Positions 1 through 51,811 of a DNA stretch of 64,000 bases are shown in pieces. This DNA comes from a phage. Position 1 is the stretch's first letter; every line of letters starts with the position of its first letter. The DNA is taken from the sequence record PZ386967.1; one strand, given 5' to 3'. The notes under the pieces are model-generated. The model was given only the letters and a program-made list of their open reading frames with translations, was not told where the DNA came from and ran no database searches. The position numbers were made by a program, and so were the translations under genes.

Positions 1-174
1 ATCACCGAAGTCCGTGCCCTGAACAAGACACTGTCTAAAGTGGTGTATGGTATCGTTGCTGGCCACGGCTGGTTCACCGACCTCGACCTGGAAGAGTCCA
101 CCATGGAAGTTGAAGTGGATGGCGTGAAGTACAAGGTCACTGCCGAACTGACAGAGAAAGAAATCAAAATCTAA
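1..174 (+). CDS. 3-prime fragment of a CDS running in from upstream (hypothetical protein)
   Basis: Open frame from position 1 to TAA at 172-174; followed by a GC hairpin plus T-run. Confidence 0.4.
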   Translation: MTEVRALNKTLSKVVYGIVAGHGWFTDLDLEESTMEVEVDGVKYKVTAELTEKEIKI

Positions 175-182
175 TCCAACGG

Positions 183-206
183 GCGGGGCAACCCGCCTTT
201 CTTTGG
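183..206 (+). terminator. Putative rho-independent terminator
   Basis: GGGCGGGG-caa-CCCGCC stem-loop followed by TTTCTTT immediately after the upstream stop; coordinates approximate. Confidence 0.4.
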
Positions 207-216
207 GAGAAGTAGC

Positions 217-540
217 ATGAGCAGTAAACCAACATATGTTGAAGTCATGCGTCATCTGGCTCAGTACGCCACTGACAATCTGAACTTGGATCTGTGGCGT
301 GACGATGACAAGCGCAAATTGCTGGACGACGTGGCATCTCAGAACGAGGACGCCCTAGACAAGCTGGCTGGCCTCCGCACCAAGAAAGACCTCGGCGGTG
401 ATGAACTGGACGCTATCGAAATTGTAATGGACCTCGAAGAAGAGTTTCAGGTCGAAATCGACGATGGTTGGCTGGGCAGTAAAGGTGATGACCCGACCAT
501 GGGTGAACTCGCTGAACTCGTGGTTGCCCTGCGCAAATAA
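217..540 (+). CDS. Acidic acyl-carrier-protein-like protein; carrier Ser position is Glu
   Basis: Segment DLGGDELDAIEIVMDLEEEFQVEI closely matches the ACP phosphopantetheine-site helix ([20 protein letters not shown]) but has DEL instead of DSL. Confidence 0.5.
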   Translation: MSSKPTYVEVMRHLAQYATDNLNLDLWRDDDKRKLLDDVASQNEDALDKLAGLRTKKDLGGDELDAIEIVMDLEEEFQVEIDDGWLGSKGDDPTMGELAELVVALRK

Positions 541-545
541 CAGAA

Positions 546-611
546 GTCCCCAACAAACGTTGGGGATTTTTACTTTTAGGGGTTTACTTCTATAATGTAA
601 ATGCGTATTAT
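546..611 (+). promoter_or_regulatory. Terminator hairpin fused to early-type promoter (TTTACT-N17-TATTAT), repeat copy 1
   Basis: CCCCAACAAACGTTGGGG hairpin plus T-run, then TTTACT, 17 nt spacer, TATTAT; about 45 bp near-identical to 903-948. Confidence 0.5.
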
Positions 612-660
612 TGAATTCATAGAGCGGGGCGTTCCTGTTCATTGAAAGAAGGTATACATT

Positions 661-885
661 ATGTCTGCTATATCATGTGTTGTTGATCTCACCCCATTTT
701 GCCTGAACAATATTGCTAACCCTAAATTGGTCTTGTTTAAGGATCCCTCTAATTTCTGCTGGCTGGCAAGTTGTGATACCAACAACGGGCGTCGTGCTGT
801 TTGGGAGTTTCCCGCAACTGATGAAGGCAGAATTTCTGCTATAAGAAAATTAGAACTAGAAAATTCAAGCCGAGAAATTAAATAG
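661..885 (+). CDS. Hypothetical small protein
   Basis: ORF downstream of promoter copy 1. Confidence 0.35.
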   Translation: MSAISCVVDLTPFCLNNIANPKLVLFKDPSNFCWLASCDTNNGRRAVWEFPATDEGRISAIRKLELENSSREIK

Positions 886-902
886 GCATAACTTTTATTA
901 AA

Positions 903-968
903 TCCCCAACAAACGTTGGGGATTTTTAACTTTTAGGGGTTTACTTCCTTTAAGGAATGTCCTATTAT
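903..968 (+). promoter_or_regulatory. Terminator hairpin fused to early-type promoter, repeat copy 2
   Basis: Same hairpin and TTTACT-N17-TATTAT as 546-611. Confidence 0.5.
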
Positions 969-1019
969 TCAATAACTGGCGAACGATGGGTTCACCGGGT
1001 TGAAAGGTAAGATTATATC

Positions 1020-1259
1020 ATGAAGAACAAAATGGTCGAAACTTCAGTAGAGATTGATCGCAATTGGGGATTGCTCCGCGCTAAAGGGTTCCGTCGTGTG
1101 TATGCGACCAAAGAAGTCTACGCACAGCGCCGTGACGTTATCATCAGCAAGAAAGGCAAAGAGTGGGTTGCTGAAGAAGTTGATGTCGAGACAGGCATCG
1201 TAGGAAAGGTAAAGGCCAAGGCCGTGATCCTCTTCGCTCTTCTGAAGCACATCAGTTAA
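1020..1259 (+). CDS. Hypothetical protein
   Basis: ORF with ATG preceded by purine-rich stretch; downstream of promoter copy 2. Confidence 0.4.
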   Translation: MKNKMVETSVEIDRNWGLLRAKGFRRVYATKEVYAQRRDVIISKKGKEWVAEEVDVETGIVGKVKAKAVILFALLKHIS

Positions 1260-1318
1260 TTCTATAACTTTGGGCGGGGTATGATTACCCCGTCTATTTG
1301 AAATGCAGGAACTATACC

Positions 1319-1825
1319 ATGACCGATCAACAAATTCAAGATTTATTTTACCTCGTCCATGATAAGTCCCACATCATGCGCCCCGGTACTGTTTCCCCTG
1401 CCGTCCGTGATCTGGTGCAAGAATTGCGCGAACCACAGACGACCACACTTTATCGCGGGTTGCCTAAAGAGGACGTTGCGCGTTTAGAGATGATGTTTGA
1501 ACGAGGCGACATGTTCCAGACATGGGATTCTTGCCTTAGCTTCAGTGAACTGAAGCATGTGGCCAAAAAATTTTCTAAATCGTACGGAACCCAAGCTGTT
1601 GCCCGCATTTGTTACAAACATCGAAACAGACTCCCGGAGGGGCTTAATGTCTATGGTTCTCTAGAAAAATTTGTGAACAAAGGCGATGAATCAGAAATGG
1701 ATATGCTGGACTTGGCGTCCATGGAGAAAGAATGGATATTCTGCCAGCCTCGCGTCATACCAGTTTCAAGAAAAATGGCAACAGACGGCACGATGGTTTT
1801 TACCGTATCACTTGTTACCCTATAA
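1319..1825 (+). CDS. Hypothetical protein; possible ADP-ribosyltransferase-like (R, S-x-S, E-x-E motif order)
   Basis: Start trimmed to Met after AGGAACTATACC leader; motifs LYRG, WDSCLSFS, EKEW in the order of R-S-E class ARTs such as T4 ModA/ModB; weak. Confidence 0.45.
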   Translation: MTDQQIQDLFYLVHDKSHIMRPGTVSPAVRDLVQELREPQTTTLYRGLPKEDVARLEMMFERGDMFQTWDSCLSFSELKHVAKKFSKSYGTQAVARICYKHRNRLPEGLNVYGSLEKFVNKGDESEMDMLDLASMEKEWIFCQPRVIPVSRKMATDGTMVFTVSLVTL

Positions 1826-1877
1826 ACCCACGGCGGGGTATGATTACCCCGTCTATTTGAAACCAAGAGACTATATC

Positions 1878-2255
1878 ATGAAAAAGTTAATCCTCGCTGT
1901 TGCCCTGCTGGGCGCTTCCTTTGCTGCTGTTTCCGCCCCTCCTGTCATCACCGGAGTGTCTACCAACGGTGTTTATGCTTTCAAGGCGTATGGCCAAGAC
2001 CTCGTTCTGTATAAGAACGGGAAGATGATTGAGCGCTGCGTATCAGACGACGTGAATCGTGGGATCGACAATCAGGGTAGCCCATACGTCCTGGACATCT
2101 ATTCCTGCTCCAACGGGACGAAGTCCTTTGGCGTCAAGACCTTTGGCAACGTCGCCGACGGTGGCTGGGGCTTCATGTTCGAAACCCGCAACCACCACCC
2201 GGTCAAGACCATGCAAGAAGAGTTCTTGATCTCTGTCGGGGGTGGAACATTATGA
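1878..2255 (+). CDS. Secreted protein with N-terminal signal peptide
   Basis: Start trimmed to MKKLILAVALLGASFAAVSA after AGAGACTATATC leader. Confidence 0.5.
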   Translation: MKKLILAVALLGASFAAVSAPPVITGVSTNGVYAFKAYGQDLVLYKNGKMIERCVSDDVNRGIDNQGSPYVLDIYSCSNGTKSFGVKTFGNVADGGWGFMFETRNHHPVKTMQEEFLISVGGGTL

Positions 2256-2539
2256 CGCCTGAACAACGCCGTTCCGTGAAAGTCATGGTGAAAGGTAAGA
2301 CTCAGCTGAGTTATGTCCAGTCTGCCAATGTTGTCCGCCTGATGGAAGTCAAGAACGACATCGACAACTCCCGATTCCAATCGGCACTCTACGGGCTTCT
2401 CGAGTTCGTTCTTCGCCAGGCTGATCTTGGTCCTGTCTATACTCTTGATGATCTGACCAAGCTGTTGAACACGGGCGGGGAAGGTTTCGACACTGCTCGT
2501 ATCCTGATTGACGGTGGACCTAAAGAAGACGAGGTATAA
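2252..2539 (+). CDS. Hypothetical protein
   Basis: ORF with stop/start overlap to upstream gene. Confidence 0.4.
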   Translation: MTPEQRRSVKVMVKGKTQLSYVQSANVVRLMEVKNDIDNSRFQSALYGLLEFVLRQADLGPVYTLDDLTKLLNTGGEGFDTARILIDGGPKEDEV

Positions 2540-2699
2540 TTTGGATAAAGAATTGGTTTGGGAAATTGTGAAGGGTGTCCTAGTAATAATCGCGGTGGTT
2601 TTCATCTTGGGTGGAAACTTCTTCTATTGGTTATTCCGATCCGACCAGAAACGTCGCGAACGCAAGGAGAAAGAGAGAAAGGATCGATGGATGCGCTAA
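2508..2699 (+). CDS. Small membrane protein, start uncertain
   Basis: Hydrophobic segment VKGVLVIIAVVFILGG followed by a basic tail. Confidence 0.3.
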   Translation: MTVDLKKTRYNLDKELVWEIVKGVLVIIAVVFILGGNFFYWLFRSDQKRRERKEKERKDRWMR

Positions 2700-2731
2700 C
2701 TAAGGGATAACCCTATATCCCGAGGTGTGTC

Positions 2732-3181
2732 ATGTTCCTTACATCCTTTATTGACTGGTTGAACATCATTAACGGCCTGAGGATCCCTGTTGGGAACCTC
2801 GGGCTTTCTCGTTCTTCTATGCCGCAAATCGATGCCGACAAACAAGAAGATTTTCACAAATATCTTGAAGACAACGGCGTGTCCATAGATGCTGTGCAAG
2901 TGCCCATCAAAATGCTTCGTCTCACCCAGAACGAAATCAACAAGATGAAGGTCTGGAAGATCATGAAGCAGATCAGAAATAAGAAACCTATGGGTCGAGT
3001 TTGGGTGTCTTCTGACAATTACGTTGTTGACGGTTCTCACCGATTTGTCGCTGCGTTGAACATGGACGGCAAACAGCGCATGAAGGTCTACAAAGTTGAT
3101 TTGCCAGCGATGGAATTTGTTAAACTCGCTAAACAGTTTCAGGGTGTGCGATACAGAACGGTCAGCGATACCCGTTTCTGA
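2732..3181 (+). CDS. ParB/Srx-like nuclease domain protein
   Basis: Motif VVDGSHRFVAA resembles the ParB N-terminal DGxHR signature. Confidence 0.4.
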   Translation: MFLTSFIDWLNIINGLRIPVGNLGLSRSSMPQIDADKQEDFHKYLEDNGVSIDAVQVPIKMLRLTQNEINKMKVWKIMKQIRNKKPMGRVWVSSDNYVVDGSHRFVAALNMDGKQRMKVYKVDLPAMEFVKLAKQFQGVRYRTVSDTRF

Positions 3182-3260
3182 ATACGATAGTTTATTGAAA
3201 CCCTTTACTCATCATGGTGAGCCGCCTATCATTTCATCCAATGAAATAAGGAGAATCACC

Positions 3261-3947
3261 ATGAAACGTTTAATCCTCGGGGTCGTGCTGTCTGGTCTGG
3301 CATTACCCGCCGCTGCTAAGCTGAACCCCACAGGTGATAAACTGTGGTCCGACCTTTCCTATTGTGCTGGGTTCTCCCAGGCGGTTGCCATCGACAAGTC
3401 TGGTTCCATAGAGAACTTCGCTGAACTCTGGAACACAGGCAACGTCTCCACTGCTGTCGTCAATGCCGGAATTGAGTTCAACCGTTACAAACAGGGAGCC
3501 TATAACCTCAAGGGCTACCTCAATGACGACGAATTTAACCGTGGAGGCATGGAGGCTGGCGATTTGATCATGACTGGGCGTATGGGCACCCAAGGCCGAA
3601 TGACCGTAAGACAGTGCCGTTCGCTCCCTTCTCCGGCATTACAGAAGGGTGTGCAGGTTGGTCGCCGCCACCTGAACCTCATCAACGATGGCAACCAGTG
3701 CGTCAAAGTATTCGAATACAGCGCTACGCAGACCTCTGATCGCGTCCTGAAGAAGGAATGGCGCACCCGCGCTCTTGGTCTCAGAGCCTGGCTGGTTGAG
3801 AACGATTATTACTTTGAAGACAGGGTTCAGAACGGTCTGAAAGACCTGGCCACGAATCTGAGCGTGAACCTTGATGATCCTCGCATGTCGCGCGAACTCC
3901 AGCAGACTCGTGTTGACTGCGACAATATGATGAAGGAGAACGAGTGA
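3261..3947 (+). CDS. Secreted protein with signal peptide
   Basis: Start trimmed to MKRLILGVVLSGLALPAAA after AGGAGAATCACC. Confidence 0.5.
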   Translation: MKRLILGVVLSGLALPAAAKLNPTGDKLWSDLSYCAGFSQAVAIDKSGSIENFAELWNTGNVSTAVVNAGIEFNRYKQGAYNLKGYLNDDEFNRGGMEAGDLIMTGRMGTQGRMTVRQCRSLPSPALQKGVQVGRRHLNLINDGNQCVKVFEYSATQTSDRVLKKEWRTRALGLRAWLVENDYYFEDRVQNGLKDLATNLSVNLDDPRMSRELQQTRVDCDNMMKENE

Positions 3948-4273
3948 TGAAATGTAAAATCTTGCTCTTGTTGGTACTGATAGCCGGATGTGTAAACGCC
4001 GCGCCACCGTCCAAACTGAACACATGTGTGGCATGGATGGAGACGTATCAGCAGTTCCACCCAGATGACAAAGACACATCTATCCTCCTGTCTGACTTTG
4101 AGGGAGAGCTGAAGCGCCTTGATCTGTTCAGTGTTGATCAGATAGAGAATGCGCTGGATCTTCCCATGATGCTGACTGCGGCTGATAACAGTCCACAAAC
4201 GAAGAAAGACCTGATGTATTGTCGGGGGATTGCCCAGGACTTTGTCGGATTTCAAAATAAAGTTTCGGGTTAA
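3944..4273 (+). CDS. Putative lipoprotein
   Basis: N-terminus MMKCKILLLLVLIAGC has a lipobox-like LIAGC. Confidence 0.5.
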   Translation: MMKCKILLLLVLIAGCVNAAPPSKLNTCVAWMETYQQFHPDDKDTSILLSDFEGELKRLDLFSVDQIENALDLPMMLTAADNSPQTKKDLMYCRGIAQDFVGFQNKVSG

Positions 4274-4309
4274 AATTTAGCCCTACATTGTGAACTGAAG
4301 GAATACACT

Positions 4310-5179
4310 GTGATGCTCCTGACCAAAACAATCGCTGCGGCGATTATCGAAAAGAATAAGGCTTTTGCCCCCAACGTAGCCAAAGTTATGTTGGTACACG
4401 AAGACGCTCGCGTGATCTTCGCCGAGAAGTTCGAGATGGGCGCGAAGTTCTGGTATGCCGACAACTTACGTGAGAGCAAACTTCAGGGTATCATCCACAA
4501 ACTGACTCTGGTCGCCAAGCGTAATGACCAGGGTGACTGGGTCGGCGTTTCTGACTTCAGTACGAAGATCACCCCAAAGGCTCCGCTTTCTCGTCAAGAG
4601 CGCATTCTGGAAGCCCAGGAAAAGCTGCGTGCGGCTCGGAGTACCACAAAGGCGAAGCCAGATGCAAGCCCTGTCATCAAGCCAGCGGTTGTTCCTAAGT
4701 CCAAATACCTCCCGCCCGTGAGTCAAAAGTCTGTGGAGCAATTGGTTGAGAAGCGCAAGGGTGACGTTGTGATGAAGTCTGACTCTTCAGTGGAGTCGTT
4801 CAAGCCGGATCCAGCAGAAGTACAGGCGCTGGCAGAAAAGGTAAAGAATTCACAATTCATTTCCCTGCGCGAACTTGAACCGCCTACTCGCCGTCGTATC
4901 GCCAACGAGCTGTTTGTGTCGTTCAGGTCGGATGGCAAGATCGTCCTGTGCAAAGCCCTGCGCGATGCAATCCCTTGGACAACTCTGAACATGATGGTCA
5001 CTCGCGACTTCAAGCGTTTTGGTATCATGCAAGGCAAGGACTACAACGTCAACCAGAGCGGGACTTATGTTAATCGCGCCATGTGTGACAAACTGACCTT
5101 CCCAGAAGACACCGGAACGATCCGTGTCGTTCTGAATTGGGATGACAAGCTGAACATGTATGTTGGCGATTTCCAATAA
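4310..5179 (+). CDS. Hypothetical protein
   Basis: 289 aa ORF. Confidence 0.5.
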   Translation: MMLLTKTIAAAIIEKNKAFAPNVAKVMLVHEDARVIFAEKFEMGAKFWYADNLRESKLQGIIHKLTLVAKRNDQGDWVGVSDFSTKITPKAPLSRQERILEAQEKLRAARSTTKAKPDASPVIKPAVVPKSKYLPPVSQKSVEQLVEKRKGDVVMKSDSSVESFKPDPAEVQALAEKVKNSQFISLRELEPPTRRRIANELFVSFRSDGKIVLCKALRDAIPWTTLNMMVTRDFKRFGIMQGKDYNVNQSGTYVNRAMCDKLTFPEDTGTIRVVLNWDDKLNMYVGDFQ

Positions 5180-5235
5180 TCAATAACCTCGGGCGGCTTA
5201 TCATAAAGCTGCCCTTTCATTTGAGAGACTATATC

Positions 5236-5898
5236 ATGGAAAAACTTTATTCTATTATCGTCGGTCCTGATCCTGACGGATTATTCTTCGCCTCGTTGTC
5301 TTATATTGCCCACGCCCGTATCGGTAGCTATTACGCATATTGCACACGTGGCCACGACGGTTCCAATATCCTCCATTATAGCCGCCTGAACGATTTCCTG
5401 GCACTTCAACCAGAAGATGTTGTGCTGGCGCGTCGCGTGTTCATCGACTTCAACGCGATGCACAACAACGAAATCGACGCTCGCTACCATGCCATGCGTT
5501 CTATGGACGGGGGAGATTGCATTTATCGTATCGACCATTTTAGTGAGTTTACCGAATGTATTGATTGGTTTATCTCTGATAAAGTGATGGGTGAAAGAAT
5601 CGTCACAACTCCGTGGGCACATGCGGAACAACTTCGTGTGTCTACCGATGCGTACAAAGAAGTCGACAATCTGTGCAACAAGTTCCGCATCTCGGTGACC
5701 TGTAATCAAGACCTGGGCGAAGAGATACAATGGACAGCTGAGTCTCCTCATTTCAGTGGCCTGGTGATGACGGCCGAAACCCGTTCCCGTGCTGTTGTCC
5801 AGTTAGTACTCTGGGCGTTCTACCAGCGCACCCCGTTCTCGTACATGGGGCAGAAAGAGATTGATGAACTCCTGAAGTCTCACGCGGTGGAGGTGTAA
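5236..5898 (+). CDS. Hypothetical protein
   Basis: Start trimmed to MEKLY after GAGAGACTATATC leader; hairpin terminator upstream. Confidence 0.5.
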   Translation: MEKLYSIIVGPDPDGLFFASLSYIAHARIGSYYAYCTRGHDGSNILHYSRLNDFLALQPEDVVLARRVFIDFNAMHNNEIDARYHAMRSMDGGDCIYRIDHFSEFTECIDWFISDKVMGERIVTTPWAHAEQLRVSTDAYKEVDNLCNKFRISVTCNQDLGEEIQWTAESPHFSGLVMTAETRSRAVVQLVLWAFYQRTPFSYMGQKEIDELLKSHAVEV

Positions 5899-5899
5899 T

Positions 5900-6178
5900 A
5901 TGGCTGGCGTATGGTGTGATGTCTTGCTGGTTCGTTACAGCGTAAATGGGTGTGTCCAAGTGCGTTCCGCCTTCTATCCAGTACCGTTCTCTTCCGGTGG
6001 CCTGACGGTTCAGCGAGTTCTCGATATTGAGGCAGAACTGAACAAAAAGTCTTTTGGTGTACAAGTCCTGGGGTACGATCTTCTGAATGAAATGATGGTT
6101 GAAGAAGACAAAGTTGAGACTGTCATTGGTCGTCAGGAGATGGAATCGTTAATCTCCAAATCGGAGGTCAAATCATGA
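5900..6178 (+). CDS. Hypothetical protein
   Basis: ORF tightly packed after upstream gene. Confidence 0.4.
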   Translation: MAGVWCDVLLVRYSVNGCVQVRSAFYPVPFSSGGLTVQRVLDIEAELNKKSFGVQVLGYDLLNEMMVEEDKVETVIGRQEMESLISKSEVKS

Positions 6179-9441: not shown

Positions 9442-9449
9442 TATTTATA
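9442..9449 (-). promoter_or_regulatory. T4-type late promoter TATAAATA
   Basis: Exact octamer on the minus strand in the 45 bp gap between divergent genes; coordinates approximate. Confidence 0.45.
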
Positions 9450-15692: not shown

Positions 15693-16330
15693 TGAACATC
15701 ACTCCATCTCAGGCCGGATATGAACATATCTTGGTCTTCATTGCTCTACAGGGTGCGAAGGAAGGCATCATCGTATCCGAGTACTCAGGCACGGTTCGCC
15801 TTGCCGATTATGTCGCACCAGAGGCATTTATCAAGAAGTGTATTGACGCATGGTGTCTCTATGCCCTCAGCACATACCCTGCTCCTCCTGAGGGTGAGCT
15901 GTTGTTTACTGTACCGACTCCGGCTGTTGGGGATACGGATGCCATCTTTGCCGATATGCTGGCGAAGGGGTATCTGGTGTATGACATCACCCACGATGTC
16001 TACTCTTTTACTTCGCTGAACACCGTGTTTGGATTCACCATCACATCTGAAGCCAACATCCCTGACTGGGGTATCTTGGCATGGGGTGTTGACGGCCTGG
16101 GTGCAACCTACGCATCGTCTGACGTCGGTGCAGTTCTGATTGATGAGGGTGTCACCATGGAGCAGTACCTTGCCCAGTTCCCTCAGCACAATATCACAGG
16201 CAGCGACATCATTTTGGTCCAGCCTGGCGCTATCGCTCTCCCCCGTTTGGTGGATGGATGGAATCCTCGGCTGAAGGGCATCATCGCAGGTATTCGATCC
16301 CACATTCCGATTGTGAATCCGACGCCGTAA
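15692..16330 (+). CDS. Hypothetical protein
   Basis: Start trimmed to MNITPSQ; ATGA overlap with upstream gene. Confidence 0.5.
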   Translation: MNITPSQAGYEHILVFIALQGAKEGIIVSEYSGTVRLADYVAPEAFIKKCIDAWCLYALSTYPAPPEGELLFTVPTPAVGDTDAIFADMLAKGYLVYDITHDVYSFTSLNTVFGFTITSEANIPDWGILAWGVDGLGATYASSDVGAVLIDEGVTMEQYLAQFPQHNITGSDIILVQPGAIALPRLVDGWNPRLKGIIAGIRSHIPIVNPTP

Positions 16331-16343
16331 AATAATTCAATAA

Positions 16344-16388
16344 AAGGGGCTTTTGCCCCTTTACTTCTTCAATATCCTTCCCTATACT
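16344..16388 (+). promoter_or_regulatory. Terminator hairpin plus early-type promoter TTTACT-N17-TATACT
   Basis: AGGGGC-tttt-GCCCCT hairpin then TTTACT, 17 nt, TATACT; coordinates approximate. Confidence 0.45.
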
Positions 16389-16436
16389 TCATTCCATAAG
16401 CAACACAACACCAACTTGAAAAGCAGGAACTACACC

Positions 16437-16712
16437 ATGAAAATTATCCTCGACGCATATATCCGCCACGGTCAGAAATACCTGATGGCCAAGGTTTACG
16501 ACGGCGAAGAATTGATCCACGCCCAGACCGCCCCAGCTGCCCAGCTGCGAGAAATCATGTCACGCGACTTCCCTGGTGTTGAAATGGTAGAGCCTACCAA
16601 CCAGGCCGAAGTAGACAAAGAGTGGGAGCGCGAATGGAGTCCAGCGGCTATCGCTCGGGCTGAAAAGAATTGGTCTAACCGCGAAAACGCAAACCGCCCT
16701 TTCCGCCGTTAA
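16437..16712 (+). CDS. Hypothetical protein
   Basis: Start trimmed to MKIILD after CAGGAACTACACC leader. Confidence 0.5.
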   Translation: MKIILDAYIRHGQKYLMAKVYDGEELIHAQTAPAAQLREIMSRDFPGVEMVEPTNQAEVDKEWEREWSPAAIARAEKNWSNRENANRPFRR

Positions 16713-22467: not shown

Positions 22468-22563
22468 CAGGCCTCATTCGACGAGGCCTTTTAAAATACT
22501 TCAAAAATAATTTTAAAAAATTATTGAAAAAGACTTTACTCTTCAATAATGATGCACTATTAT
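22468..22563 (+). promoter_or_regulatory. Terminator hairpin plus early-type promoter TTTACT-N17-TATTAT
   Basis: AGGCCTC-attcgac-GAGGCCT hairpin with T-run, AT-rich tract, then promoter; coordinates approximate. Confidence 0.45.
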
Positions 22564-22636: not shown

Positions 22637-23125
22637 ATGGCTACCACCAAAACTCTGATCACCAACGGCACCATCTCTTTCGAACTGAACACCGAAGTTG
22701 CTAAAGTTGAAATGTTCCGCATCGCTCAGGCAGCTGGCTTCACTGGTGGCAAAACTTCCTTCATGAACCTGCTGAACGGTAAAGTGAAAGCGACTAACGG
22801 CTTCACCCTGGTAGAGCAGGTTGTGGTTGATAAAGCTGTGGTTGCTAAGACTGCCGACAAAGTTGGTATGCTGAAAAACCTGGGTCACGACATCCACATT
22901 GTCGAAGCAAGCACCGAAACTTACGGCACCATCGTAGTCGGTAAAGGTCGCATCCAGCTGAACCCGCTGAACAACGGTTCCTTCTCTGTGATGGTCTTCC
23001 CTAAGAAGGGGTACGACAACACCGACATCGTGAAAGCTGTTGGCGGCGAAGCAAAAGCTCAGTACGTCAAAATGGGTAAACTGAGCGCCGACGCAGTTGA
23101 AGCTCTGGTGAACAAACTGGCTTAA
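22637..23125 (+). CDS. Hypothetical protein, likely highly expressed
   Basis: Start trimmed to MATTKT after GAGGAATTACATC leader; codon usage biased to CTG/AAA/GGT/GAA. Confidence 0.55.
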   Translation: MATTKTLITNGTISFELNTEVAKVEMFRIAQAAGFTGGKTSFMNLLNGKVKATNGFTLVEQVVVDKAVVAKTADKVGMLKNLGHDIHIVEASTETYGTIVVGKGRIQLNPLNNGSFSVMVFPKKGYDNTDIVKAVGGEAKAQYVKMGKLSADAVEALVNKLA

Positions 23126-25047: not shown

Positions 25048-25130
25048 GTAACTCGCCAACCCTCCCCGCCGCCTTCAATCTACGAGGGCGGCGTATAATA
25101 AAACCTGCGTAAACAAACCCGAGGAACACC

Positions 25131-27413: not shown

Positions 27414-27482
27414 ATTGGTCTAAACCTACTACCGTTATATCATCAGGGGTGAGAGATCACCCCTATTCATCAGGAGTTCTAT

Positions 27483-27776
27483 ATGTTCCAAACGTTATTG
27501 TTAGTCCCTGGCCAACCAGGTATCTTGCTCGAACACAACAGCAAAATGGAAGCGGAGAATGTTCTGCGCAACGTGAAGGTGGCCACTGCTTGGCACAACG
27601 GCGGCGAAGTCACGGCTATCCCGTTGAACTACACGGATCCAATGGATACTGTGAACCGTACTCACATCCTTCTAGACCTCAGCAAATTACCTGCAGACAA
27701 ACGCCGGGATTTTGTTGTTAACATCAAGAATTACATTACCACCGAACAGATCAAACTCCACGAAGGCAAGGCATAA
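27483..27776 (+). CDS. Hypothetical small protein between nrdA and nrdB
   Basis: 97 aa ORF, partly overlapped by the nrdB N-terminal extension frame. Confidence 0.35.
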   Translation: MFQTLLLVPGQPGILLEHNSKMEAENVLRNVKVATAWHNGGEVTAIPLNYTDPMDTVNRTHILLDLSKLPADKRRDFVVNIKNYITTEQIKLHEGKA

Positions 27777-29170: not shown

Positions 29171-29221
29171 TCCCAGTAATTCATTGGCATTCGCCACAAA
29201 TTGAACAGCAGGAACTATATC

Positions 29222-29461
29222 ATGACCGACTCTGAAGTCTACGACACCTCAATGAAATACCACGCCATGACAGCCAAACGCGGCTGTGCTGCTAACAAGG
29301 CATATTGGATAGGTGAACTCAGAACCCTCCGCGCCGTGGTCAACCACGAAATCATTATGAATCACGACAACAACGGTCAAGGTAAAGACCGAGAAGAATT
29401 GAAGGTTGCTCGTGAACGTCTTCGCTTTGGTCTGACCAAAGCCCTTGAATATGTGAAATAA
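29222..29461 (+). CDS. Hypothetical protein
   Basis: Start trimmed to MTDSEV after CAGGAACTATATC leader. Confidence 0.5.
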   Translation: MTDSEVYDTSMKYHAMTAKRGCAANKAYWIGELRTLRAVVNHEIIMNHDNNGQGKDREELKVARERLRFGLTKALEYVK

Positions 29462-29472
29462 GGAACTATATC

Positions 29473-29934
29473 ATGACAAACAAAGTACTCACCAACCCAC
29501 TGCACAACTTCGGTTACATTCAACTCCCTCTGGTGATCGACACCCTGTACGCCGACGACAAAGAAGAGATCTGCTGGTCACCCACCGCACTGATTGAACG
29601 CGAAATCTTCAAGTCTGTTGTTGATGTCATGTTCCGTATCGGTCGCAATGGACCTCTGGTCTACCTCGGCAAGGTGACTGAGTTGAAGACAAGCCACAAC
29701 GAACGCTTCCTTCGTATCGATACAACGGGGTGCTCTCATCAGGACTTCAACACATTGCGCAATTATGTTCTGGTCAACCGCCCGGTCAGTCAACACCGCC
29801 CGTATCTGACGTCAATGCACATCGACAATTTCATCACCGACGTACACCTCCGCGCCGAAACCCTCCATGAAGAGGAAACAGGCCGAGCTATCGACACAGT
29901 CTTAAATATGGTTGTGATCACCCTGGCGGAGTAG
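29473..29934 (+). CDS. Hypothetical protein
   Basis: ATG preceded by AAGGAACTATATC leader. Confidence 0.5.
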   Translation: MTNKVLTNPLHNFGYIQLPLVIDTLYADDKEEICWSPTALIEREIFKSVVDVMFRIGRNGPLVYLGKVTELKTSHNERFLRIDTTGCSHQDFNTLRNYVLVNRPVSQHRPYLTSMHIDNFITDVHLRAETLHEEETGRAIDTVLNMVVITLAE

Positions 29935-34764: not shown

Positions 34765-35355
34765 ATGAAATATTGCGGAATCGACTACTCCTATGGCTGT
34801 CCATCCCTGTGCTTCTGGGATGACAAAGACCCTCTTGATTTTGATCATCTGCGCTTCTACGCATATTATACTGTGGAGAAGTACTGCACTCAGATTCGTC
34901 AGAATATCCTTATCATGAAGCAACCGAAGTGGGAGACCCCAGAAGAACGCTTCTATAACATCTGTAAATGGGCTGAGGCTGTCCTGTTGACTGAGAAGCC
35001 GGATGTGATCACTCTTGAAGGGTATGCTATGGGCAACTCTAAGAACTCCAACAACATATGCCAGACCGCAGAGAATACCTCACTGTTGAAGCAAGCCCTG
35101 CGCCGTAACAATTTCGACTTCCAGATCGTGACGCCATCCCATGTGAAGAAGATGTTCACCGACAAGGGCAACGCGGATAAACACGCCATGATCGCTCACT
35201 TCGAGTCGCTGTTCAATGTTAATATGCGCGGTATAATGGATATGTTGGAAGTTAAGGATCCTAAGCCAATCGATGACCTCGTGGATTCGTTTGCGATAAT
35301 GGCTTGTGGCTCTTACTTCATTGAGAATAATCCAGACTTCAACAGAGGTATATGA
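34765..35355 (+). CDS. Putative RuvC-like Holliday junction resolvase
   Basis: N-terminal GIDYS, mid TLEGYAMG and C-terminal DSFAIMA follow the RuvC D/E/D acidic-residue layout. Confidence 0.4.
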   Translation: MKYCGIDYSYGCPSLCFWDDKDPLDFDHLRFYAYYTVEKYCTQIRQNILIMKQPKWETPEERFYNICKWAEAVLLTEKPDVITLEGYAMGNSKNSNNICQTAENTSLLKQALRRNNFDFQIVTPSHVKKMFTDKGNADKHAMIAHFESLFNVNMRGIMDMLEVKDPKPIDDLVDSFAIMACGSYFIENNPDFNRGI

Positions 35356-36383: not shown

Positions 36384-36481
36384 TTCAATGTAAGATCGGG
36401 GTATAATTACCCCGCTTTGTAGCAAACTGAAATACATGTAACAGAATAGCCCTGAGGGGCGGAAACAGAGGAAATTAAGAA

Positions 36482-38498: not shown

Positions 38499-38506
38499 TA
38501 TTTATA
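38499..38506 (-). promoter_or_regulatory. T4-type late promoter TATAAATA
   Basis: Plus strand reads TATTTATA upstream of minus gene start at 38464; coordinates approximate. Confidence 0.45.
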
Positions 38507-39222: not shown

Positions 39223-39285
39223 TTCTATAACCTGTTCCGAGGGATAATTCGTGAACGGGTAATCCTTCAACAATGAGGCTATAAC

Positions 39286-40520: not shown

Positions 40521-41360
40521 ATGTCATATATTCTTCATGTGGATTCTGGAACCAAAATTGAAATTGAAGGCAAAGACGTTGCTGCTATTCAGGCTGAAAT
40601 CAAAGAAGCAGGTCTGATCATCGGAAACGTTACCCTGCGCCGTATGGTTGAAGGTGTTCTTCAGGCTGCCAACGGCTTCGAACTGATTGAAGGTCTGAGC
40701 GCCGAAGAGAAGGAAGAAACTCAGCAGGCTCTGGCGCAAGCCCAAGAGCAAGCCCAAGCTGAAGTATCCCTGAAAGTCGCTGAAACCGTTGATGCTGAAG
40801 CACCGATCTCTGCCGATGCATGTGAAGCCCCAGTGTCCGACGCCCCGGTAGACGCGGTTGAAGATGCAGTCAACGCGGCGCTGGAAGAAGGCAATCAGCC
40901 GTCCGACGCGAAAATCGGTTCCTTAGCGTCTTCTATGCTGAAAGAAGCATCGAAGGGTAAGACCCTGACCCCGCAGGCAGCGCTGGTAGAGCGTAAACGC
41001 CGTCACACCAAACGTGAGGAAATGGTTGACTTGGCTCGCGCTTCTAATCACGGTCCGGTCTTGGCGGCGATTGAAGCTGGTGTTGTCCCCGGCGTGTTCC
41101 TGAGCTACGTGAACCCAGACATGCGTTGGTTCCAGTTCCCGGTCACCGAACTGGCTAACCCTGAAAACCTTCACGCCCGCACCAATACGTATGTCGACGT
41201 TGCGCCTATCGTTTCCGGTGGCTGGGGCTTCAGTCTGTACGTGAACGGCAAGTCCTTCACCAAACGTCAGAAGATCAAAGAGTCTGATGCTGAGTCTCTG
41301 GTTAAGGCGATCAATGAATGGCTTCCACAGGCTCTGGCTGAAGCGAAAGCTGCTGCGTAA
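40521..41360 (+). CDS. Hypothetical protein with acidic Q/A/E-rich linker
   Basis: 279 aa ORF after strong promoter. Confidence 0.5.
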   Translation: MSYILHVDSGTKIEIEGKDVAAIQAEIKEAGLIIGNVTLRRMVEGVLQAANGFELIEGLSAEEKEETQQALAQAQEQAQAEVSLKVAETVDAEAPISADACEAPVSDAPVDAVEDAVNAALEEGNQPSDAKIGSLASSMLKEASKGKTLTPQAALVERKRRHTKREEMVDLARASNHGPVLAAIEAGVVPGVFLSYVNPDMRWFQFPVTELANPENLHARTNTYVDVAPIVSGGWGFSLYVNGKSFTKRQKIKESDAESLVKAINEWLPQALAEAKAAA

Positions 41361-47607: not shown

Positions 47608-47671
47608 GCAATTCAATAAAGCGGGTCATAGGGTATAATTCTATGATCTGAATGTAAACCAGGAGCACATC

Positions 47672-48344: not shown

Positions 48345-48420
48345 GAACACCAAGAAGCCCAGTCAAGTACTGGGCTTTTTAACTTCAATAACTTTACTTT
48401 CAAGAAATAATCGCCTAATA
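48345..48420 (+). promoter_or_regulatory. Terminator hairpin plus early-type promoter TTTACT-N17-TAATAT
   Basis: GCCCAGT-caagt-ACTGGGC hairpin with T-run then promoter; coordinates approximate. Confidence 0.45.
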
Positions 48421-49983: not shown

Positions 49984-50213
49984 CATGCGCAAGTATTTCA
50001 ACTGGCTGTTGGCAAGCCCCTGAGCACCGAAATCCGTTGTCTGATAGATGCGATCGATGTTGAAATGGAATGGCGAGCGCCGGATTAATCGCACAAAGGC
50101 TCAGGCCGAAATTAAAATCGTGAAGAAGTCCACAAGGCTCTGGGTTTCATAACAAATAATTCAATAAACTATTCACCCATATAATACATGGGAACTTACA
50201 GAAGGAACAGACC

Positions 50214-50572: not shown

Positions 50573-51181
50573 ATGTCACTGAAAAACTTACTGAAACGCA
50601 TCTTCACCACTGTTGAAGCTAACGTCACCGCAGGTCTGGATAAACTGACCGACACCGAAAAGCGCCTGAACCTGGCTGCTCGCAAGCTGTCTGACGAAAT
50701 CCGTCGCCTGGAGGAAGCCCGTGTCACCAACGTCCGCAACGGCGTCAAGCTGAAGAAGACCGCAGAACAGAACCTAAGTGAAGCCGCCAAGCGCGAAGAA
50801 GTTCTGAAGGACGCCATCGCTCGTGGTGTCACACCAACCCGCGCCGACGCCCTGATTATTCTGCATCGCCGCCGTATCGGTGAAGCCCTGTTGGCTCAGG
50901 TGAAGGACATCGAAGCAAGCAGCGACAAACTGAACGGTGCGATCATCCAGCTGGGTGACAAACTGGACGAAGTCAAGTCCAATCTCGAGCTGGTTCGTGT
51001 TCAGAAAGAGACGAACGACCTGGGTCTGGTGCTCCCTGAAGATATCGATTATGCCGCTGGTATGACCACCATCGATATCGATGCCATCCTGCGCGAAACC
51101 GAAATCGCTGATTCGAGCTACTCCGCCAACAGCCCGTCGTCTATCGAAGCCGACAACTACCTCGCCAGCCTGAGCAAATAA
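50573..51181 (+). CDS. PspA/IM30 (phage shock protein A)-like coiled-coil protein
   Basis: N-terminus LKRIFTTVEANVTAGLDKLTDTEK parallels PspA [24 protein letters not shown]; all-helical coiled-coil composition. Confidence 0.5.
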   Translation: MSLKNLLKRIFTTVEANVTAGLDKLTDTEKRLNLAARKLSDEIRRLEEARVTNVRNGVKLKKTAEQNLSEAAKREEVLKDAIARGVTPTRADALIILHRRRIGEALLAQVKDIEASSDKLNGAIIQLGDKLDEVKSNLELVRVQKETNDLGLVLPEDIDYAAGMTTIDIDAILRETEIADSSYSANSPSSIEADNYLASLSK

Positions 51182-51195
51182 CATCAGAGGGGCTT

Positions 51196-51756
51196 ATGCC
51201 CCTCTATCACTTCGGGGATCTTATGAACATTATTGATTCTTTCAACATACTCACTGGTGCTACTGCTTTCGTTCTTTTGTGTATTGGCAGTGCCTGGCTG
51301 AGAGGTCGACTGAAGAAACGGGAAGTCTTGAAGCGAGACCGTATTGACATCCACAAAATAATGCTGGATAGAACTTGCAAACATGGCCCCAGCGGTGACT
51401 TCCGTTTGTATTATTTGTCGGATGAAGTCACCCCTTCGGAATTCTTCAATTATGCGATGGCTGGGTTGCGATGGCCGGAGATAAACGGCGTTGTTCAGAA
51501 AACTGATTACGTGTACGTGAATATGGCTTCCCTGAACAAGCACGGGGAACGCGACGATCTGCGGATGTGGTTCTTTGGAGGAGAGGAACAAGAAGAGTTT
51601 GTAAAAGAACTTGCTCTCTTGCTTAACACGTACGAAAAGGCTGGTTGCCCACCACTCGAGGTGGAAGAATCAGTAGAATCTATCGTGGCTCGCGCTCGTG
51701 GTGAAACCGTGGATCTACTGAACAAATACGGCTTTGTCTGGGCGGAGGGTTCATGA
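51196..51756 (+). CDS. Membrane-anchored protein (N-terminal TM), holin-like topology
   Basis: Single N-terminal hydrophobic segment then soluble domain; hairpin terminator between it and the PspA-like gene. Confidence 0.45.
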   Translation: MPLYHFGDLMNIIDSFNILTGATAFVLLCIGSAWLRGRLKKREVLKRDRIDIHKIMLDRTCKHGPSGDFRLYYLSDEVTPSEFFNYAMAGLRWPEINGVVQKTDYVYVNMASLNKHGERDDLRMWFFGGEEQEEFVKELALLLNTYEKAGCPPLEVEESVESIVARARGETVDLLNKYGFVWAEGS

Positions 51757-51811
51757 TGGATACAGAAGTCATTATCAGCCAAGCAAGATCCCACACCCGC
51801 CAATAATCTAT

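Follow-up and report, generated by a model that had tools for sequence, protein, structure and literature searches.

A duplicated terminator-promoter cassette around an optional gene in an Ackermannviridae phage, and the promoter family to which it probably belongs

The 64,000-nt stretch of phage DNA considered here (sequence record PZ386967.1; referred to as the window, with all positions counted along it) carries close to its beginning two copies of a cassette of about 70 bp, at 542-611 and 900-968, in which a terminator-like hairpin is followed by a sigma70-type promoter sequence, and between the two copies lies a small open reading frame (ORF) of unknown function, ORF74 (74 amino acids (aa); 661-885, + strand). 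On sequence analysis, the best explanation is that this is a duplicated terminator-promoter cassette of a conserved Ackermannviridae promoter set that also acts as a recombination seam for an optional gene, a reading that we consider likely. The corresponding model proposes that copy 1 would end transcription of the upstream acyl-carrier-protein (ACP)-like gene and restart transcription into ORF74, and that copy 2 would end the ORF74 unit and restart transcription into the next early genes. The eight promoters of the window, together with at least three elsewhere in the genome, would form a conserved pre-replicative promoter set of the family. Being repeated, the cassette would supply homology to the phage recombination system, and crossing-over or gene conversion within it may remove, add or swap the enclosed gene while the regulation of its neighbours is left undisturbed. 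The source of the DNA is, as judged from its matches, an Agtrevirus-like phage of the Ackermannviridae, subfamily Aglimvirinae: megablast of positions 1-6000 returned 276 phage records, nearly all from this family, with Escherichia phage vB_EcoM-ZQ1 as the best match (coverage 100%, identity 96.8%), followed by the Agtrevirus-like CECAV_050, fGh-Ecl02, AV101, A221, SKML-39 and Ag3.

Anatomy of the cassette

Both copies present, in the same order, the hairpin CCCCAACAAACGTTGGGG, a T-run, GTTTACT, a 17-bp spacer and TATTAT. An earlier note on this DNA had described such a unit as occurring twice, each time with TATTAT 17 nt further on, and every element of that description was found in its place. 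A repeat search of the window gives the direct repeat a spacing of 357 bp, and the two copies are 83.8% identical over 74 nt (544-616 against 900-973). The 18-mer hairpin CCCCAACAAACGTTGGGG is present at two places only in the window, even with up to three mismatches allowed, where 0.05 matches would be expected. In copy 1 the terminator-like hairpin (542-578, + strand) begins just 3' of the stop codon (538-540) of the ACP-like gene (217-540); its core at 548-565, which can be written CCCCAAC-AAAC-GTTGGGG, is followed by the T-run ATTTTTACTTTTA at 566-578. Promoter P583 then occupies 582-611 on the + strand (-35 GTTTACT at 582-588, N17, -10 TATTAT at 606-611), has a start predicted near 618-619, and is followed by AGAAGG and the ATG of ORF74 at 661. 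Copy 2 stands beyond the ORF74 stop codon (883-885) with its hairpin at 900-935 (+ strand; the same core at 904-921, T-run ATTTTTAACTTTTA at 922-935) and promoter P940 at 939-968 (+ strand; -35 GTTTACT at 939-945, N17, -10 TATTAT at 963-968), for which a start near 974-975 is predicted and which is followed by AAGG and an ATG at 1020. The copy 2 hairpin is thereby the predicted terminator of ORF74, and P940 the predicted driver of the 79-aa gene at 1020-1259 and of the genes downstream of it.

Both hairpins have the form of an intrinsic terminator, namely a G+C-rich hairpin followed by a U-run, and both fold far more stably than shuffled controls (copy 1, -18.5 kcal/mol, z -6.2; copy 2, -16.3 kcal/mol, z -5.2). 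A simple terminator scan flagged the copy 1 hairpin on the - strand only (566-547). An Rfam scan of positions 1-3500 at E <= 1 gave zero matches, and the cassette is thus not a described RNA element. The T-run of the cassette also holds a second TTTAC, at 569, which opens the match that scores highest against the promoter consensus in this region, TTTACT(569)-N16-TATAAT(591) at 569-596 (10 of 12 positions). This candidate was rejected as the functional promoter because its TATAAT becomes TTTATA in CECAV_050 and TATAAG in pertopsoe and CBA120, whereas the hexamers at 583 and 606 are kept; it is probably a lineage-specific and fortuitous match.

Two further features of the hairpins may be recorded here. 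In some genomes the palindrome is inverted, with GTTT rather than AAAC in the loop and an unchanged stem, as in copy 1 of pertopsoe (L005, 1210-1227) and both copies of Det7 (L012, 1507-1524 and about 1863-1880). A conserved G+C hairpin (CATAGGGCGG...CCGCC) is also found a few nt 3' of the -10 at P583 (621-640), at P22535 (22570-22595) and in the Magnus orthologue (L006, about 1462-1482), where in each case it may be a stabilising stem-loop at the 5' end of the leader.

A conserved family of probable promoters

The pattern under which the earlier note had grouped these promoters, TTTACW-N17-TATWMT, has six matches in the window where 0.01 would be expected, and all six lie on the + strand. Once the -10 is loosened to TANNNT, the number rises to nine against 0.44 expected (both strands together), eight of them on the + strand and one on the - strand, while TTGACW-N16-18-TANNNT has no match on the + strand of the window. 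The eight + strand sites lie at 583, 940, 3204, 16360, 22535, 29142, 40424 and 48393, and the spacer is exactly 17 nt in 8/8. Of the recurrences that had been proposed, those at 16360, 22535, 29142 and 40424 hold; the one placed at 48392 in fact begins at 48393, and its -10, TAATAT, does not fit TATWMT, and the site at 3204 had been missed. Every + strand site is intergenic, with the end of the -10 28-73 nt before a + strand start codon, and the sites are co-oriented with the genes, standing before small early-type ORFs and DNA-metabolism clusters. A G+C-rich hairpin lies directly upstream at five of the eight (583, 940, 16360, 29142 and 48393); at 22535 one lies about 45 nt upstream, and none was seen beside 3204 or 40424. 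The base before TTTAC(T/A) is G at three sites (583, 940 and 40424) and C at the other five.

Beyond the cassette itself, the + strand members begin with P3204 (3204-3232; TTTACT-N17-TATCAT), which precedes the gene at 3261-3947 and is conserved in four other genomes. At P16360 (16360-16388; TTTACT-N17-TATACT) the hairpin GGGGC-TTTT-GCCCC abuts the -35, so that the T-tract of the predicted terminator would be the -35 hexamer itself, and at P29142 (29142-29170; TTTACT-N17-TATACT) the hairpin GCCCCTC-AAT-GAGGGGC abuts it likewise. P22535 (22535-22563; TTTACT-N17-TATTAT) stands before the gene at 22637 and the endolysin, PhoH and nrd cluster, and P40424 (40424-40452; TTTACA-N17-TATTAT, or TATATT at N15) before the gene at 40521 and the thymidylate synthase/dNMP kinase cluster. 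P48393 (48393-48421; TTTACT-N17-TAATAT) follows a terminator hairpin and precedes a RecT-like gene; at its orthologue in CBA120 (L011, reverse strand, upstream of orf061, about 1700-1740) a 16-bp unit, TTTACTTCAATAAAAC, is tandemly duplicated, which yields two -35-like hexamers, and only the second of these has a -10 at N17. The motif search of window and genome that had been suggested as a check also extended the family, as three more intergenic members, located on the minus strand at 16276, 125118 and 135847, were found in the rest of the ZQ1 genome. These three and P16360 share a cassette of about 100 bp that runs from TTTACTTCTTCAATAA through a conserved leader to AGGAACTATATCATG at the ATG end and is found at four loci genome-wide. 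The family accordingly numbers eight in the window and at least 11 in ZQ1, the closest complete genome.

Orthologous upstream regions were compared in CECAV_050 (Agtrevirus), LIMEstone1 (Limestonevirus), CBA120 (Kuttervirus) and Magnus (Taipeivirus). No orthologue departs from the -35 hexamer, and the -10 is always TANNNT at a spacing of 16-17, while the spacer drifts; identity with CBA120 and Magnus amounts to 100% in the -35 (78/78), 86% in the -10, 66% in the spacer and 75-81% in the 15-nt flanks. At P29142 the spacer is wholly different in CBA120 and Magnus with both hexamers kept, and P583 retains its hexamers with a diverged spacer in CECAV_050, pertopsoe and Det7. Hairpin stems are retained while loops change, changes within the stems being compensated. 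Blind two-strand scans of 50 kb each recovered the orthologous sites, and all matches fell on the gene strand (CBA120, 7/7; LIMEstone1, 7/7; Magnus, 8/8, two of the eight being probably chance), and in none of these three genomes was there a match on the other strand. Conserved hexamers with drifting spacers are the footprint expected of promoters read via -35 and -10 contacts, and the comparison supports the view that the sites are sigma70-type promoters with a T4-early-like -35.

It might still be proposed that the repeat is a terminator or RNA-stability hairpin and nothing more, with TTTACT as the tail of its T-tract and TATTAT as incidental A/T-rich sequence. TTTACT does abut the stem at 16360 and 29142, the T-run contains the second TTTAC at 569 already mentioned, and a simple consensus scan of the first 20 kb returned 24 promoter-like matches against 19.4 expected. 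However, TTTACT is found with no adjacent G+C hairpin at 3204 and 40424, and with the hairpin some 45 nt away at 22535; the distance to TANNNT is invariant at all eight sites; the -10 has been kept although the stretch separating the two hexamers has changed; and the pattern lies about 20 times above chance, on the gene strand only, in four genera. We therefore regard a purely terminator-like element as very improbable, and return to the sigma70-type promoters.

The -35 found here, TTTAC(T/A), is that of T4 early promoters and not TTGACA; the earlier note had likened it to the GTTTAC of T4, which is documented (PMC1524935). Where that note had spoken of phage-specific early promoters for sigma70, the sigma70-type family is upheld by the conserved hexamers, but it is common across the Ackermannviridae and so not phage-specific. 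As to the reader and the timing of these promoters, the geometry of their elements, the types of gene downstream and the finding of gp55, a late factor, as the sole phage sigma lead us to infer that the host sigma70 holoenzyme would recognise them and that they would fire early.

Several observations weigh against this account. The -35 agrees with TTGACA at 4/6 positions only, an extended -10 TG (at -15/-14) is present in 0/8 sites, and the upstream A/T tract is not uniform, being clear at 22535 and 40424 and replaced elsewhere by the G+C hairpin, so that the sites are not of the UP/-35/TGn/-10 type described for T4. At P16360 and P29142 the run after the stem is just UUUACUU, which is marginal for an intrinsic terminator, and termination there may be partial. 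A literature search, which covered few subscription journals, found no RNA-seq or transcription-start, timing, termination or reporter evidence for Ackermannviridae promoters, and a 2024 review of the family is silent on promoters and transcription. Further, in the GenBank record of LIMEstone1 (HE600015; PMC3296691) the counterparts of P940 (given there with -35 GTTTAC and -10 TATTAT) and of P40424 are entered as 'putative early promoter', whereas 'putative middle promoter' is the label of those of P22535 and P48393, both with the same -10 as found here, and of the 16360 region.

Those labels bear on a different reading, in which the sites are real promoters but delayed or middle ones that need a phage factor, perhaps bound beside the -35 at the 8-mer TTCAATAA or its complement TTATTGAA. 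The 8-mer has 14 matches in the window, both forms counted, against 2.26 expected, and 9/10 of its + strand matches are intergenic, in 6.8% of the window; TTCAATAA occurs on the + strand at 968, 6437, 16336, 22542, 40409, 47612, 48384, 50160 and 61702, and TTATTGAA at 608, 3192 and 22521. The two form an inverted repeat, TTATTGAA-N12/13-TTCAATAA, that encloses the -35 of P22535 (22521-22549) and also that of two ZQ1 promoters. LIMEstone1, CBA120 and Magnus have kept the repeat at the P22535 position, and it may serve a regulator as operator. The enrichment, the conserved inverted repeat, the LIMEstone1 labels and the preponderance of DNA-metabolism genes downstream all speak for a phage factor. 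However, the hexamers with their 17-bp spacing would by themselves make a workable sigma70 promoter, the position and orientation of TTCAATAA relative to the hexamers vary and P29142 has none, and the 'middle' labels came from matching to the T4 MotA-box consensus in a family that is without MotA and AsiA. Dependence on such a factor therefore seems unlikely, although it is the strongest of the competing explanations, and early recognition by the host sigma70 holoenzyme is the reading retained here.

Prediction of individual promoters in this family is not new. Besides the LIMEstone1 record, Table S2 of the phiSboM-AG3 paper (PMC3121705) places Porf069, Porf100 and Porf138, among nine sigma70-like candidates, at orthologous positions; Porf069 is the orthologue of P40424, and the registers differ from ours, with TTGAAA...ATAAT at Porf100. 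The CBA120 paper held early promoters not to be identifiable by informatics. The LIMEstone1 and AG3 predictions were pattern matches within single genomes, with inconsistent registers and classes, and were not seen as one conserved family; nor do those records draw the link made here between the cassettes and gene gain and loss. Within the literature searched, the recognition of a single promoter family conserved across genera appears to be new.

Gain and loss of the enclosed gene

ORF74 matches a protein family of unknown function, phrog_22629 (2.4e-48), which is its sole profile match, with none in Pfam; it has four cysteines, and tblastn gave no match outside the Ackermannviridae. Its reading frame is open in 32 phage records from three genera, and its ratio of nonsynonymous to synonymous substitution (dN/dS) of 0.07-0.10, against CECAV_050 and Magnus, indicates purifying selection. 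It is left unannotated in at least eight of the listed records, which include ZQ1, CECAV_050, SP-9-14, SW16-7, Se_AO1 and several Klebsiella phage records. With a predicted promoter before it and a predicted terminator after it, ORF74 would constitute an autonomous promoter-gene-terminator unit.

The gene is optional; the earlier note had overlooked both what the copies enclose and this polymorphism. Two cassettes and ORF74 are found in the window, ZQ1, CECAV_050, pertopsoe and Det7, and one cassette with no ORF74 in AV101, A221, LIMEstone1 and CBA120, the difference being exactly one 357-bp repeat period. Two alleles of ORF74 exist, with about 82% aa identity, and each allele as well as the empty state is found in both subfamilies; at the nucleotide level the ORF74 of the window is 94% identical to that of pertopsoe and 82% to that of CECAV_050. 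In an alignment of twelve cassette copies from eight genomes, the segment from hairpin to -35 is nearly invariant, and the 17-bp spacers fall into discrete alleles. The spacer allele beginning tctataaggcaaa belongs to copy 1 in the window and pertopsoe and to copy 2 in CECAV_050. The single cassette of CBA120 joins this allele to the leader of copy 2, a fusion that implies a crossover at the -10, while those of AV101, A221 and LIMEstone1 have the copy 2 spacer behind the upstream context of copy 1, which places the crossover in the hairpin/-35 segment. The spacers of Det7 are identical in both copies, consistent with homogenisation. Because the crossover points differ, general homologous recombination would be the more fitting cause than a site-specific enzyme, and for such recombination the phage has genes of its own (those for UvsX, a RecT-like protein and gp46/47 homologues).

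A dedicated enzyme has nonetheless to be considered, namely a site-specific recombinase or nuclease that would target the hairpin and mobilise the ORF74 module as a mobile element. The inversion of the whole palindrome (the GTTT loop) in copy 1 of pertopsoe and both copies of Det7 would suit such an enzyme, and a stem-loop-binding recombination protein was the subject of speculation in the T4-type phages discussed below (PMC2839356). However, the crossover points vary, some lying between hairpin and -35 and one at the -10, the other two repeat-bounded indels in the window have unrelated repeat sequences, the phage has its own general recombination genes, and no recombinase gene was found in or beside the module by ORF list, PHROG or Pfam searches. 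The probability of a dedicated enzyme appears slight, and general homologous recombination between the cassettes is preferred.

The other two repeat-bounded indels are of the same geometry. The gene at 1319-1825 has as its borders two copies, 88% identical, of a second repeated cassette, at 1273-1322 (left) and 1832-1881 (right; both + strand), each made up of a hairpin with TATGAT in the loop and a translation-initiation region. A221 and pertopsoe have a single, hybrid version of this cassette and are without exactly one 559-bp period, so that the gene is absent. The third optional gene, at 29222-29461 (79 aa, with a PHROG match), lies directly behind P29142 within a feature at 29211-29477 (+ strand) bounded by a 16-nt direct repeat, GGAACTATATCATGAC, at 29211-29226 and 29462-29477, and comparison of the junctions shows it to be absent from CECAV_050. 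Not every indel is of this kind. Relative to CECAV_050, those at 27476-27774 (an extra ORF between nrdA and nrdB, with a counterpart, ORF067, in LIMEstone1) and at 50574-51768 (a block of 1195 bp preceding the DNA ligase gene) are not bordered by repeats, which counts against a general role for the cassettes, and an insertion in A221, at window position 3164-3169, falls inside a gene. Cassette-mediated exchange would therefore be one mechanism among several.

Some side observations concern these genes and repeats. The product of 1319-1825 (168 aa) has no Pfam match, and its PHROG match (phrog_832, 5.8e-15) is to the catalytic part of RNA polymerase ADP-ribosylases. Its gene is present in the window, AV101 and CECAV_050 and absent from A221, pertopsoe and Magnus; LIMEstone1 has denV at this position, and CBA120 and Det7 have ORFs of the same length (507 bp) there. 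The CBA120 paper reported no homologues of T4 early-regulation proteins. A conserved translation-initiation region of the form TTGAAA(N)GCAGGAACTATA(T/C)CATG stands before many early genes (1298-1321, 1857-1880, 16413-16439, 29199-29224, 29462-29475 and others), and its 16 identical nt at 29211 and 29462 would be enough for a recombination substrate.

Against a mobile or exchanged module, ORF74 is found at one locus only, after the ACP-like gene, in every genome inspected, and among these genomes there is no sign of the module moving to new sites. In the Taipeivirus Magnus, moreover, ORF74 lies at the same locus behind a TTTACT promoter and 5 nt before the next gene, with no second cassette. 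This arrangement suggests that ORF74 may be ancestral at the locus and that the polymorphism may be mostly loss. A pattern scan of the uncultivated viruses in IMG/VR yielded five loci, in essence the isolates already at hand, with no further flanked gene among them. An alternate scenario would make the duplication a passive leftover of tandem duplication or insertion, with no role in gene flux and with an ORF74 polymorphism that arose once. The constant locus and the Magnus arrangement agree with it, and the flanking genes, at about 90% identity between genera, are similar enough for either state to have spread by ordinary homologous exchange of the entire region. However, there are at least two types of chimeric single cassette with differing crossover points, spacer alleles have been swapped between copies 1 and 2, the copies of Det7 have been homogenised, each subfamily has genomes of the empty state and of either allele, and two other optional genes of the window share the repeat-bounded geometry. 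We consider a passive leftover improbable, and somewhat more so than the phage-factor reading above, and keep to the cassette as a likely recombination seam.

Relation to known systems

The closest parallel is offered by the PeSL (promoter-early stem-loop) cassettes of T4-type phages, described in phi1/RB49, T4/PST and KVP40/nt-1 (Arbiol et al., 2010, PMC2839356; Comeau et al., 2014, PMC4122927). In a PeSL, a G/C stem-loop takes any of five positions with respect to the boxes of a sigma70-like early promoter, and a Shine-Dalgarno (SD) sequence and ATG follow. PeSLs are concentrated among ORFans, indels end within them, and promoter activity, terminator activity and circular excision products (mini-circles) were shown experimentally (PMC2839356; PMC4122927). 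The elements described here are, at the sequence level, the same intergenic composite of terminator/attenuator stem-loop, sigma70-like promoter, SD and ATG, and the stem-loop upstream of the -35 corresponds to one of the five PeSL subclasses. They are likewise repeated in a plastic region of small ORFs of unknown function, the second cassette at 1273/1832 lying within 2 kb, and indels between close relatives end inside cassettes and comprise one gene module exactly, here in three cases. Crossovers in PeSLs fall in the stem-loop itself, in the stretch from -10 to SD or in that from SD to ATG, and the three cases here show a like spread. There are also differences. PeSLs belong to T4-type phages and the Ackermannviridae are only distantly T4-related; the -35 of phi1/RB49 PeSLs is described as the E. 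coli consensus, whereas here it is TTTAC(T/A); the activity and the mini-circles of PeSLs are experimental, whereas the present cassettes are known from their sequence; and the ORF74 module occupies one locus only. Since the virus family is another and the features that define PeSLs are experimental ones (promoter and terminator activity, mini-circles), the cassettes are better called PeSL-like than PeSL homologues. The literature search mentioned above found no paper combining PeSL with Ackermannviridae, Kuttervirus, Viunalikevirus or Agtrevirus, and hence no earlier description of what may be PeSL-like cassettes in this family.

With T4 early promoters the family shares the -35 GTTTAC, with T for the G of the host at the third position (PMC1524935), a location upstream of small host-takeover ORFs and pre-replicative genes, often a terminator hairpin in front, and, by inference here, dependence on sigma70. 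It departs from them in that the T4 promoters have the UP/-35/TGn/-10 structure (PMC2988021), whereas TGn is missing and the A/T tract variable in the present set. The -10 here is TATTAT, TATACT, TATCAT or TAATAT and not TATAAT, and a conserved TTCAATAA, extra to the T4 arrangement, is often present. T4 early promoters work at once upon infection, before any phage protein is made, and the activity of some is raised when Alt ADP-ribosylates the alpha subunit of RNA polymerase; it may be noted that the variable ORF at 1319-1825, which is RNA polymerase ADP-ribosylase-like, lies just downstream of the cassettes.

The concept of the moron comes from temperate phages, in which such genes are as a rule expressed by the prophage. 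That of lambdoid phages (Juhala et al., 2000) is a promoter-gene-terminator unit inserted between two genes. ORF74 resembles it as a putative autonomous unit between two conserved genes that is absent in close relatives, and differs from it in that the present phage is virulent. As the ORF74 unit is moreover flanked by two copies of one cassette, homologous recombination would account for it rather than the illegitimate insertion of a moron. Lastly, promoter-coupled terminators have been described in bacteria (Fletcher et al., 2026, preprint, 10.64898/2026.08.19.745784), and the sharing of DNA between terminator and promoter recurs at 16360 and 29142, where the T-tract would be the -35 hexamer. 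However, in the construct of the preprint the -10 comes right after the T-tract and the DNA of the stem-loop is the -35, whereas here the -10 lies 17 bp beyond, and at 583 and 940 terminator and -35 are separate elements, 16-17 bp apart.

Genomic context and additional promoter-like motifs

The reverse complement of CECAV_050 is collinear with the entire window, and the gene map used here was transferred from the CECAV_050 record. On the + strand, the ACP-like gene and a run of small ORFs are followed by genes for HU-like protein, helicase, RNase H, gp55, gp46/47, primase, endolysin, PhoH and nrdAB, and further on by those for gp33, gp32, thymidylate synthase, UvsX, a gp41-like helicase, the RecT-like protein and ligase, while the virion genes form short blocks on the - strand. 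Of these, gp32, gp55, gp33 and UvsX are T4-like core genes, the family being nevertheless separate from the T4-type phages. Whereas the window as a whole is closest to, and collinear with, CECAV_050, positions 1-1260 are mosaic and closer to the Kuttervirus pertopsoe (ORF74 94%, cassette 2 97% nucleotide identity) than to the Agtrevirus CECAV_050 (82-84%). A T4-type late promoter motif, TATAAATA, is found on the - strand at about 9442-9449 and 38499-38506, just upstream of a virion structural gene (9406-8639) and the tail tube gene (38464-37520) respectively, which fits the presence of gp55 and gp33 homologues.

A second promoter-like family, TTC(A/T)AT-N12-16 (mostly 14)-TATAAT, has five matches in the window, on the + strand only, against 0.04 expected and none at control spacings (25074-25099, 35212-35237, 36384-36407, 47612-47639 and 50160-50185), and two more with a relaxed -10 (1260-1285 and 39223-39248, + strand). 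Its box extends as TTC(A/T)AT(AA), and it precedes nrdA, gp32 and other genes. Each site is overlapped by a G+C hairpin, with TATAAT either in its loop or at its foot, just 3' of the stem; the stems covary between genera and TATAAT is invariant. The geometry resembles that of the MotA-dependent middle promoters of T4 (PMC1524935), the distance from box to -10 being too short for sigma70 region 4. However, the phage family lacks MotA and AsiA, and a second tier of transcription would thus need a new activator or another kind of sigma appropriation. It is a tentative suggestion, and one that is doubtful at present, that the cassettes encode a two-tier transcription programme with the TTC(A/T)AT family as its second tier, the repeated cassettes being portable modules that move small genes between genera.

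Implications

The Ackermannviridae (the ViI/CBA120 group) are widely used in biocontrol and as reporter phages, while their transcription programme is essentially uncharacterised. The sites described here would provide a map of pre-replicative promoters conserved across genera, with eight in the window and at least 11 per genome, that may be of use for the mapping of 5' ends, for the choice of insertion sites and native promoters in engineered phages, and for the annotation of small genes that have been missed. The behaviour of the cassette appears to be much as already described for T4-type phages, and is thus a real phenomenon but not a new kind of thing. What is added is the extension of the PeSL idea, in which repeated cassettes are seams for the gain, loss and exchange of accessory genes, to a second family of large virulent phages, which suggests that such seams may be a general design principle rather than a peculiarity of T4.

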